DNA of 64,000 nucleotides, taken from positions 269,514,001 through 269,578,000 of the forward strand of contig OZ024743.1 in NCBI GenBank assembly GCA_964016885.1, read 5' to 3'. Of the stretch, positions 1,194 to 4,100 are shown piece after piece. Each line of letters begins with the position of its first letter. Positions within the stretch are counted from its first letter, which is position 1. Source of the DNA: Eledone cirrhosa (lineage: Eukaryota). A program made the translations under genes and the position numbers. A model generated the notes under the pieces. The model was given only the letters and a program-made list of their open reading frames with translations. It ran no database searches and was not told the origin of the DNA.

Positions 1194-4100
1194 ATAAAAA
1201 CAAATAACGAAACGAAATTAAATTTTGTTTCGTTTGTAACTCACTTTTGTATGACTGACGCTTAAACAATTAAGTTAAAAATGTACATCCACATATGTAT
1301 ACTGAAATACTAGTATGCATATGAATACACACACGTATACATATGTAGATGTACCGAGTTTTTCACTGGTCACTTTACTGTGAGTGTCCAGCTATTCTGT
1401 ATGTAAACACACAGACAAGCCGGTTTTTAGAGTCATACTGGTTTTTGAGGAAACACCTTTCCTCTATTCTCCAGAAAGCCAGACAAGGAATATTGAACTA
1501 GTTTCGATGTTGTTACATCTCATCAGCAATATTTACCTATCTTCCGGCCTTTCTAGAGAATCGTAAAAGCACATATCGTTATATGCTTTTTCTATGAAAA
1601 TTAGTAGTGGGCAGACTAATTTGCATACAGCGTGAGTACGTACCGGTTCAACGGAGACGATAAAAACAAATAACGAAACGAAATTAAATTTTGTTTCGTT
1701 TGTAACTCACTTTTGTATGACTGACGCTTAAACAATTAAGTTAAAAATGTACATCCACATATGTATACTGAAATACTAGTATGCATATGAATACACACAC
1801 GTATACATATGTAGATGTACCGAGTTTTTCACTGGTCACTTTACTGTGAGTGTCCAGCTATTCTGTATGTAAACACACAGACAAGCCGGTTTTTAGAGTC
1901 ATACTGGTTTTTGAGGAAACACCTTTCCTCTATTCTCCAGAAAGCCAGACAAGGAATATTGAACTAGTTTCGATGTTGTTACATCTCATCAGCAATATTT
2001 ACCTATCTTCCGGCCTTTCTAGAGAATCGTAAAAGCACATATCGTTATATGCTTTTTCTATGAAAATTAGTAGTGGGCAGACTAATTTGCATACAGCGTG
2101 AGTACGTACCGGTTCAACGGAGACGATAAAAACAAATAACGAAACGAAATTAAATTTTGTTTCGTTTGTAACTCACTTTTGTATGACTGACGCTTAAACA
2201 ATTAAGTTAAAAATGTACATCCACATATGTATACTGAAATACTAGTATGCATATGAATACACACACGTATACATATGTAGATGTACCGAGTTTTTCACTG
2301 GTCACTTTACTGTGAGTGTCCAGCTATTCTGTATGTAAACACACAGACAAGCCGGTTTTTAGAGTCATACTGGTTTTTGAGGAAACACCTTTCCTCTATT
2401 CTCCAGAAAGCCAGACAAGGAATATTGAACTAGTTTCGATGTTGTTACATCTCATCAGCAATATTTACCTATCTTCCGGCCTTTCTAGAGAATCGTAAAA
2501 GCACATATCGTTATATGCTTTTTCTATGAAAATTAGTAGTGGGCAGACTAATTTGCATACAGCGTGAGTACGTACCGGTTCAACGGAGACGATAAAAACA
2601 AATAACGAAACGAAATTAAATTTTGTTTCGTTTGTAACTCACTTTTGTATGACTGACGCTTAAACAATTAAGTTAAAAATGTACATCCACATATGTATAC
2701 TGAAATACTAGTATGCATATGAATACACACACGTATACATATGTAGATGTACCGAGTTTTTCACTGGTCACTTTACTGTGAGTGTCCAGCTATTCTGTAT
2801 GTAAACACACAGACAAGCCGGTTTTTAGAGTCATACTGGTTTTTGAGGAAACACCTTTCCTCTATTCTCCAGAAAGCCAGACAAGGAATATTGAACTAGT
2901 TTCGATGTTGTTACATCTCATCAGCAATATTTACCTATCTTCCGGCCTTTCTAGAGAATCGTAAAAGCACATATCGTTATATGCTTTTTCTATGAAAATT
3001 AGTAGTGGGCAGACTAATTTGCATACAGCGTGAGTACGTACCGGTTCAACGGAGACGATAAAAACAAATAACGAAACGAAATTAAATTTTGTTTCGTTTG
3101 TAACTCACTTTTGTATGACTGACGCTTAAACAATTAAGTTAAAAATGTACATCCACATATGTATACTGAAATACTAGTATGCATATGAATACACACACGT
3201 ATACATATGTAGATGTACCGAGTTTTTCACTGGTCACTTTACTGTGAGTGTCCAGCTATTCTGTATGTAAACACACAGACAAGCCGGTTTTTAGAGTCAT
3301 ACTGGTTTTTGAGGAAACACCTTTCCTCTATTCTCCAGAAAGCCAGACAAGGAATATTGAACTAGTTTCGATGTTGTTACATCTCATCAGCAATATTTAC
3401 CTATCTTCCGGCCTTTCTAGAGAATCGTAAAAGCACATATCGTTATATGCTTTTTCTATGAAAATTAGTAGTGGGCAGACTAATTTGCATACAGCGTGAG
3501 TACGTACCGGTTCAATGGAGACGATAAAAACAAATAACGAAACGAAATTAAATTTTGTTTCGTTTGTAACTCACTTTTGTATGACTGACGCTTAAACAAT
3601 TAAGTTAAAAATGTACATCCACATATGTATACTGAAATACTAGTATGCATATGAATACACACACGTATACATATGTAGATGTACCGAGTTTTTCACTGGT
3701 CACTTTACTGTGAGTGTCCAGCTATTCTGTATGTAAACACACAGACAAGCCGGTTTTTAGAGTCATACTGGTTTTTGAGGAAACACCTTTCCTCTATTCT
3801 CCAGAAAGCCAGACAAGGAATATTGAACTAGTTTCGATGTTGTTACATCTCATCAGCAATATTTACCTATCTTCCGGCCTTTCTAGAGAATCGTAAAAGC
3901 ACATATCGTTATATGCTTTTTCTATGAAAATTAGTAGTGGGCAGACTAATTTGCATACAGCGTGAGTACGTACCGGTTCAACGGAGACGATAAAAACAAA
4001 TAACGAAACGAAATTAAATTTTGTTTCGTTTGTAACTCACTTTTGTATGACTGACGCTTAAACAATTAAGTTAAAAATGTACATCCACATATGTATACTG

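Follow-up and report, generated by a model that had tools for sequence, protein, structure and literature searches.

Tandem type I hammerhead ribozymes in which helix III amounts to one base pair and a palindromic tetraloop have been described in amphibians, in axolotl Rtz331 with its hammerhead HHR_Amex1 and in newt satellite 2 (PMC7229834). A 64,000-nucleotide stretch of contig OZ024743.1 from Eledone cirrhosa (assembly GCA_964016885.1, positions 269,514,001 to 269,578,000 of the forward strand; referred to here as the window) contains an array of units of 466 base pairs (bp) with hammerheads of this same construction. The likeness extends to tertiary elements in loops 1 and 2, a predicted self-paired circle and an expected preference for cleavage as a dimer (PMC7229834). 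What sets it apart from the amphibian repeats is its invertebrate host, its length (466 versus about 330 nucleotides), its GUU cleavage site and a predicted self-block of the ribozyme core (PMC7229834). We consider it fairly probable that this hammerhead is the processing ribozyme of an animal retrozyme without long terminal repeats (non-LTR), that it cleaves slowly and preferentially in dimeric form, and that the array is a single young insertion, placed in a (TA)n tract by Penelope-type machinery with priming from both target strands.

Retrozymes of other invertebrates come close as well. Like those of the coral Acropora and the mussel Mytilus, the unit is tandemly repeated, non-coding, below 50% in guanine plus cytosine (GC) and equipped with one type I hammerhead; unlike the weaker, amphibian-type helix III found here, theirs is more stable, and they cleave as monomers at 0.8 and 0.1 per min (PMC7229834, PMC7761336). 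In general, the invertebrate motifs are described as cleaving as monomers and the amphibian ones as needing dimers (PMC7761336). Cave-cricket pDo500 likewise has one type I hammerhead per tandem unit, with units of 463-505 bp (PMC2837043). An amphibian helix III geometry in an invertebrate is a modest extension of the known range.

The minimal hammerheads of Penelope elements also have a palindromic helix III region, for which a dimer model has been proposed. They are characterized by a helix I of 4-5 bp with an ill-defined loop 1, a helix II of 7-8 bp, an extra base after A9 (9 to 10.1) and, as far as the cited account goes, no tertiary loops (PMC4209133). The array hammerhead does not have these minimal traits, since 33 pairs enclose its core, its helix II has 4-5 bp and there is no extra base; a different motif in the window, near 40262-40305, is of the minimal Penelope kind.

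The hammerhead and its repeat unit

The first copy of the hammerhead and the features of its unit are the following.

1489-1533, minus strand: type I hammerhead core, first copy (pattern, Rfam alignment and shuffle test), made up of the next seven segments
1527-1533, minus strand: helix I, 5' strand
1520-1526, minus strand: CUGAUGA core box
1506-1519, minus strand: helix II and loop 2
1503-1505, minus strand: G12 to A14
1497-1502, minus strand: helix III segment
1496, minus strand: U17
1489-1495, minus strand: helix I, 3' strand
1496-1503, minus strand: palindrome AACUAGUU, A14 to U17 (sequence)
1467-1560, minus strand: extended helix I hairpin around the core (folding, alignment to Rfam HH9)
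1496-1961, minus strand: predicted 466-nucleotide monomer between two cleavage sites (sequence and folding)
1619-1626, minus (sense) strand, recurring every 466 bases: octamer-like motif ATGCAAAT, about 125 nucleotides upstream of the next cleavage site

The motif is read 5' to 3' from 1533 to 1489 on the minus strand, a strand that the original prediction had left out. It begins with helix I (seven possible bp), CUGAUGA, helix II (4-5 bp) and GAAA, and continues with C-UA-G, U16.1, U17 and the 3' strand of helix I; cleavage is predicted between 1496 and 1495. CUGAnGA, GAAA and UH are thus arranged around three helices and the ends are joined in helix I, as in hammerheads of type I. An equally stringent descriptor was matched by only 1 of 5000 dinucleotide shuffles of the 466-nucleotide unit, with both strands searched. 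Rfam Hammerhead_HH9 (RF02275) matches 1473-1544 over its full length (E-value 2.7e-7), at 36.5 bits as against a gathering score of 52, which by score places the hammerhead outside HH9; the whole 64-kb window contains no Rfam match at gathering level. With HH9 and Hammerhead_1 (RF00163, both in clan CL00010) it shares the core, a 6-bp proximal helix I, a 4x3 internal loop and a 4-bp helix II with a loop of six bases; its helix III is five bases shorter than in the HH9 model, and position 17 is U instead of C.

The enclosing helix argues against the minimal hammerhead of the original prediction. Folding predicts 33 pairs around the core, interrupted six pairs away from it by an internal loop in which GUAA (1533-1536) faces UCC (1487-1489). 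The 106-nucleotide hammerhead domain folds at -34.8 kcal/mol (z -4.7), and none of 200 shuffles is as stable, while the 45-nucleotide core by itself is unremarkable (z -1.5). Loop 2 is UAACAA, six bases with a 3' A. The canonical features, that is, a 6-bp helix I, a 4-bp helix II, an internal loop 1 with a 5' U and a loop 2 with a 3' A, are all present, and we regard the motif as a canonical type I hammerhead and not a minimal one. In the Schistosoma hammerhead, the internal loop is UCCA:GUAC, loop 2 is CAAAUA, and the 3' A of loop 2 pairs with the first U of loop 1 (PMC2632901). Judged by its sequence, the tertiary module appears recognizable, with two weak points. An A occupies the position of the extrahelical pyrimidine of Schistosoma (C8), and both tertiary partners can hide in local A-U pairs in the predicted fold (P 0.63 and 0.91).

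All 14 copies of the hammerhead in the window are identical. Thirteen are on the minus strand at a spacing of 466 bases and one is on the plus strand, at 7489-7533; within the array, the hammerhead positions are intact in 13 of 13 units. The unit has a GC content of 35.6%, and the longest stop-free stretch around the 466-nucleotide circle is 57 codons in the sense and 60 in the antisense direction. The predicted circle is 66% paired and folds at -151.4 kcal/mol, compared with -93.4 +/- 5.5 for 40 shuffles (z -10.6) and with only -126.6 for the antisense circle, which is 25 kcal/mol weaker. Each unit also forms two long AU-rich hairpins (1283-1354 and 1206-1236). Animal non-LTR retrozymes are described as tandem, non-coding type I hammerhead units of 150-450 bp with a GC content below 50% and a highly self-paired predicted circle (PMC7229834). 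As a class they also lack a primer-binding site and a polypurine tract, and linear as well as circular monomer RNAs are expressed from them. At 466 bp, the unit is slightly above this range and within the range of 51-972 given elsewhere (bioRxiv 10.64898/2026.07.22.740005). By those features that a sequence allows to be tested, the repeat is an animal non-LTR retrozyme.

How the unit is transcribed is suggested by analogy. The motif ATGCAAAT, which we take to be octamer-like, occurs in each unit and in 113 of 5000 shuffles; newt satellite 2 has a promoter of the small nuclear RNA (snRNA) type (PMC2220036), and ATGCAAAT is a possible candidate for an element of such a promoter. Transcription across the unit by RNA polymerase III was considered and is unlikely, the sense strand having four runs of at least four T.

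Helix III, the GUU site and the mode of cleavage

The palindrome AACUAGUU and the GUU triplet are both present as originally predicted. The accompanying reading of stem III as two base pairs and a two-nucleotide loop agrees with the letters, but the segment is best read as A-CUAG-U, a single pair (A15.1-U16.1) capped by the palindromic tetraloop CUAG. Helix III takes up the inner six bases of the 8-mer, ACUAGU; the outer pair is A14 with U17, two residues that must both be unpaired in the core of an active hammerhead (standard numbering). Because U17 is present, the palindrome grows from six to eight bases, and the additional A14-U17 pair is off-pathway. The computed self-duplex energy is -4.8 kcal/mol for the six and -6.6 for the eight nucleotides, which gives the off-pathway duplex an advantage of 1.8 kcal/mol over the active one, and according to this model the A14-U17 pair should slow cleavage of the dimer too. 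When the 8-bp form is forced with C17 or A17, it is also lower in energy, by 1.6 and 1.0 kcal/mol; as these gaps are close to that of U17, the computed effect specific to U17 is small.

Hammerheads with U17 are slower than those with C17 or A17. The residue is allowed by the NUH rule (PMC3884650), and GUU is listed among the cleavable hammerhead sites (PMC3138052). Our literature search found no measured cleavage rate for U17 and, mostly without subscription papers and supplements, no work that joins hammerhead, GUU, type I and retrozyme; nor, among the papers listed on octopus and hammerhead ribozymes, again mostly without subscription papers, was there one on a cephalopod retrozyme by title. 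Within the window, U17 is used by two of the three clear hammerhead families.

A short palindromic helix III is reported to impede cleavage of the monomer while tandem copies form an active dimer, a mode that is thought to cut multimers yet spare monomer circles (PMC4209133), and palindromic helices III have been noted across many animals (PMC4209133, PMC3088659). The idea of dimer cleavage that spares circles is therefore already published and not new. In a transcript with two of the Eledone hammerheads, the computed energy of the double hammerhead exceeds that of the ensemble by 7.1 kcal/mol, compared with 17.5 for two singles with closed helix III, and breaking the palindrome in the two-unit transcript raises the figure to 10.8. 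Monomer and tandem dimer alike have a locally misfolded computed ground state: C3-U4-G5 of the core is paired with the U-A-G of the palindrome (P about 0.93), and this misfold persists with P 0.84 after the palindrome is broken. Most animal retrozyme circles are predicted with a free hammerhead, and hence to be blocked otherwise than by self-pairing (PMC7229834). For the 466-nucleotide circle, unlike these, short self-pairing of the core is predicted: the A15.1-U16.1 pair has a probability of 0.0, with a cost of 2.6 kcal/mol for freeing the blocked core and of 8.7 for closing helix III. Two separate hammerhead domains gain only 1.6 kcal/mol by forming the double hammerhead. Dimerization of separate molecules, which the model thus places at -1.6 kcal/mol relative to two folded monomers, was rejected as negligible at cell concentrations; moreover, two closed rings that pair would, we infer, need to compensate each shared helical turn.

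The self-block of the core, the cost of closing helix III and the small gain from dimer formation support the prediction that monomer circles stay stable. The companion claim, that only multimers are processed, finds support in geometry and energies that favor the dimer, but “only” is too strong. Monomers of axolotl Amex1 are 6% cleaved after 1 h, far less than its dimers, and Amex2 reaches 22% (PMC7229834); a review reports that cleavage is possible for newt monomers whose helix I is extended and internally looped (PMC6155905). We expect cleavage that is dimer-favored and slow, with some leak through the monomer. The original prediction correctly recognized a known mechanism and overstated it in this one word.

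Several results weigh against dimer-favored cleavage nonetheless. Besides the surplus stability of the 8-bp duplex, the computed ground state is a different fold from the double hammerhead, whose cross-unit helix III has a probability of about 0.001, and two singles that stay open, with no helix III, come at only 5.3 kcal/mol. The local hairpin has formed before the next unit is transcribed (helix I P 0.91-0.96 during chain growth), and a direct refolding path to the double hammerhead has a saddle of 49.7 kcal/mol, which is an upper bound that ignores branch migration. The copies being identical in 14 of 14 cases, they provide no covariation in helix III. Finally, the energy model contains neither tertiary nor core terms, and its energies are not rates.

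A strict dependence on dimers is an alternative in which single hammerheads would never cleave, tandems would cleave efficiently and circles would be inert. The cost of helix III in the single core of a circle and the roughly 10 kcal/mol by which the double hammerhead beats two closed singles would fit, and amphibian motifs without a clear helix III are said to need dimeric constructs for efficient cleavage (PMC7761336). We nevertheless find strict dependence unlikely, given the 6-22% cleavage of axolotl monomers (PMC7229834), the cleavage of newt monomers with an internally looped helix I extension (PMC6155905) such as is possessed here, and the doubts that misfold, refolding barrier and A14-U17 pair cast on efficient cleavage of the dimer.

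The opposite view would make the monomer mode dominant: contact between loop 2 and the internal loop would stabilize single hammerheads during transcription, and the palindrome would be incidental or a back-up. The CUAG loop may exceed its modeled stability, as a loop of the CUNG type, and local helix I, as stated, forms at once in the growing chain. The palindrome is also statistically weak, since, with the A...U ends given, symmetry at its two inner positions has a chance probability of about 0.07. GUAA/UCC and the 3' A of loop 2 resemble the UCCA:GUAC and CAAAUA of Schistosoma (PMC2632901), and most invertebrate retrozyme hammerheads cleave as monomers (PMC7761336). Those invertebrate motifs, however, have a more stable helix III (PMC7229834, PMC7761336), the tertiary partners can be hidden here and an A replaces the extrahelical pyrimidine, and Amex1 keeps all tertiary contacts and is still a poor monomer (PMC7229834), all of which makes a dominant monomer mode quite improbable. 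We keep to slow, dimer-favored cleavage in what follows.

The insertion and its Penelope-like neighbors

The array is part of a larger structure with four components.

1118-1196: left (TA)n tract, half of the target site (sequence)
1194-7210, minus strand: tandem array, 12.9 units with 13 hammerheads, RNA 3' end toward the left (TA)n (repeat analysis)
7208-7757, plus strand: inverted segment, 550 bases or 1.18 units, no mismatches, hammerhead at 7489-7533, RNA 3' end toward the right (TA)n
7757-8014: right (TA)n tract (sequence)

There is one mismatch in the 6017 bases of the array, or one in 6567 when the inverted segment is included. Array and inverted segment overlap by the three bases CTA at 7208-7210, where the two 5' ends meet, and both RNA 3' ends point outward into (TA)n. 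Beyond both tracts, the flanks match a paralogous site without the insertion, 8131-8250, where they follow on one another with only a short run of TA; a score as high as those of the two flank alignments was reached by 1 and 0 of 200 shuffles. As the flanks are contiguous on this site, array and inverted segment are one insertion, and with one mismatch in 6567 bases it is a young one. Its four ends are at unit positions 302, 344, 231 and 148 from the cleavage site, and none is at the cut. The outer two (302 and 231) are in U-rich stretches near the AU-rich hairpins, which are possible preferred priming sites. A target-site duplication is unreadable, with both ends within (TA)n; in animal retrozymes it is described as longer than 4 bp when present (PMC7229834). 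RNA transcribed across the inverted junction would fold into a perfect duplex of as much as 550 bp, on which silencing or adenosine-to-inosine editing would be likely to act.

In twin priming, known for the L1 element, both target strands prime reverse transcription internally, and the layout of the insertion fits what is expected of such priming. It is compatible both with a circle that was copied about 13 and 1.2 times and with a linear transcript of about 14.3 units that stayed uncleaved and lost 112 bases; the uniformity of the array is only a mild argument for the circle.

The linear template is central to an explanation in which the ribozyme is nearly silent, because it lacks a protein chaperone or has decayed, and in which the insertion derives from an uncleaved linear transcript of at least 14 units or from later unequal crossing-over. 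The succession of inverted segment, 112-base gap and forward array suits it, as do the self-blocked core and U17, the Xenopus dimer elements, of which eight of nine did not cleave in vitro and one did (bioRxiv 10.64898/2026.07.22.740005), and the Penelope minimal hammerheads, which cleave poorly even as dimers (PMC4209133). We think it improbable all the same. Neither the core nor the two helices nor the tertiary loops are damaged, the circle is much more stable than its shuffles and 25 kcal/mol more stable than its antisense, and an unrelated second hammerhead in the window also has GUU, so that U17 is no one-off decay. A single mismatch across 14 units is also more in keeping with one circle being copied over and over than with the copying of an older array. 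That the array length or the inversion is an artifact of assembly, an over-expanded repeat or a fold-back read, is very improbable: units that are 99.98% identical invite the suspicion and such structures trouble assemblies (PMC8557442), but the junction, which connects unit position 425 with 155 through the 3-base overlap, lacks the symmetry of a fold-back, the flanks are contiguous, a diverged element at 59076-60157 has the same tail-out layout, and the hammerhead itself would be untouched.

A retrozyme insertion by Penelope-type machinery, our preferred reading, draws on what is known of Penelope-like insertions, which are described as comprising partial tandems and an inverted 5'-truncated copy at the 5' end and as targeting (TA)n, without a readable duplication (PMC8557442). 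The Eledone insertion has all of this; it differs in its cargo, 12.9 copies of a non-coding retrozyme of 466 bp, in which no similarity to local Penelope-like ends was detected. The machinery that mobilizes animal retrozymes has been left open in the accounts cited, with Penelope-like elements as candidates from co-occurrence and kinship (PMC7229834, PMC7761336, bioRxiv 10.64898/2026.07.22.740005). By analogy, the footprint of the insertion fits mobilization of the Penelope type. The window has elements of this and similar kinds.

10930-13625, plus strand: Penelope-like element, 5'-truncated and frameshifted, with reverse transcriptase and GIY-YIG, (TA)n at both ends (domain matches); it exemplifies the candidate mobilizing class and does not belong to the retrozyme
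40184-43457, minus strand: second Penelope-like element, 5'-truncated and frameshifted, with a CX4CXXC linker motif, (TA)n at both ends (domain matches)
near 40262-40305, inside the 40184-43457 element: minimal hammerhead, GUC, 2-bp helix I
59076-60157: (TA)n-bounded element unrelated to the retrozyme, tail-out layout, arms 97.3% identical
60066-60115, plus strand: second type I hammerhead, GUU, helix III segment ACAUUGU (odd palindrome)
59176-59287, within the 59076-60157 element: inverted 112-base copy, core changed to CUAAUGA

The first element has a 590-residue frame with reverse transcriptase and GIY-YIG, a DKG motif and atypical linker cysteines; the best named relatives of a retroelement protein that neighbors the array come from Octopus bimaculoides and are 53-55% identical to it. 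Near 13414-13450 there is a degenerate hammerhead-like motif that has the GGGC/GCCC helix II in common with the 40-kb element and an altered core. In the second element, the matches to reverse transcriptase and GIY-YIG are weak (E-values 6.7e-4 and 0.058), and its CX4CXXC linker motif is of the Neptune/Nematis type (PMC8557442). Next to it, at 43700-44290 on the minus strand, a further non-LTR retrotransposon is represented by a fragment, in which 44074-44256 matches zf-RVT (E-value 8.5e-6). The hammerhead at 60066-60115 is matched by Rfam Hammerhead_1 with an E-value of 8e-5, below gathering, and the surrounding element is probably a Penelope-type 3' end fragment.

Four of four delimited hammerhead- or Penelope-type elements are bounded by (TA)n, whereas 8.1% of 45,647 background bases are near such tracts. 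This count speaks for a Penelope-type insertion, but the four elements were chosen by us in a TA-rich region, and tracts can grow after insertion. Other points weigh against such an insertion. When the unit was compared with the 3' ends of both Penelope-like elements and with the third element, a search confined to these three elements of the window, the best local matches fell in AT-rich sequence and were not convincing, their scores being reached by 24, 1 and 1 of 100 shuffles. Both Penelope-like copies in the window are truncated and frameshifted, and near-identity and copy number of the units may partly reflect polishing of the assembly.

The remaining features of the window concern other repeats and candidates that we rejected. 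A host gene that could provide read-through transcription was sought among 113 open stretches outside repeats and the two Penelope-like elements, with two Pfam matches as the outcome. One is a zf-RVT fragment; the other, to Cornichon (E-value 3.6e-4), is without a relative of solved structure and was dismissed as spurious. It comes from 37281-37620, where a short, AT-rich element is flanked by (TA)n tracts; this element contains an inverted repeat of some 60 bases and a degenerate CUGAGGA...CGAAA motif at 37432 on the plus strand. Rfam matches to microRNAs and small RNAs were far below gathering scores and due to AT-rich hairpins. An 11.8-kb array at 21089-32881 consists of about 1311 copies (88% matches) of the 9-base unit TGATGGTGG and has long low-complexity open frames. 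Further tandem repeats with units of 74, 49 and 30 bases are at 8837-9480, 17058-17335 and 61068-61630, and a relaxed scan of them gave no convincing hammerhead. Four dispersed copies of about 150-190 bases, recognized by eye and similar to short interspersed elements, are at about 9780-9960, 14650-14790, 14925-15110 and 19900-20100.

A pattern scan of genome contigs for prokaryotic relatives with the same helix III and GUU yielded 69 loci, which we rejected as chance matches. None of the 68 that could be parsed had at least 4 bp in both helices, and Rfam, applied to 13 of the 69, gave no match. Nine cyanobacterial loci, promising at first sight, show the variation of coding sequence and can be translated as a single open frame, presumably of a transposase-like protein. 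A plasmid search with one of the 69 loci returned four partial, uninformative matches, and the 466-nucleotide unit had no match in phage genomes.

A model for the retrozyme and its meaning

The explanation that we favor can be put as a sequence of steps. Each unit of a minus-strand read-through transcript would first fold as a long local hairpin with a mostly self-blocked core. Cleavage would proceed mainly, though not exclusively, through a slower refolding, in which neighboring units swap helix I strands and ACUAGU pairs with ACUAGU across units, giving two cores with a 6-bp helix III; U17 and the A14-U17 side pair would throttle this route further. The released 466-nucleotide monomers would be closed into circles by a host ligase, and the circles would be stable, with a single core that is weak and self-blocked and with closed rings that are hard to wind into a dimer. 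Penelope-like reverse transcriptase and endonuclease machinery would then open a short (TA)n, both target strands would prime reverse transcription at internal RNA positions, yielding about 13 and about 1.2 units, and the two complementary DNAs would be joined head to head.

A bolder version of this model, which we put forward only tentatively, takes the locus as a fresh retrozyme footprint, with a Penelope nick in (TA)n, both strands primed on the circle and rolling-circle copying for about 13 and 1.2 turns, all in a single event. The ribozyme would be doubly throttled, in the monomer by the palindrome blocking its core and in the dimer by the A14-U17 trap, and U17, as a trait that recurs among the hammerheads of this lineage, would serve to keep circles available as templates.

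The less expected parts of our findings are the weak GUU site and an insertion footprint that points to Penelope-like carriers. An invertebrate case of an amphibian-type helix III combined with GUU would widen the range of natural hammerheads. PMC7229834 asks how circles with a freely folding hammerhead avoid cutting themselves, and the 466-nucleotide unit offers a candidate answer: the palindrome blocks the core of the monomer, and closed rings hardly form the dimer. The mobilizing machinery has so far been argued from co-occurrence and kinship. An almost unmutated insertion that combines a Penelope-type target with an inversion is a structural footprint that can be counted genome-wide, and in this respect it is more useful than the dimer idea.

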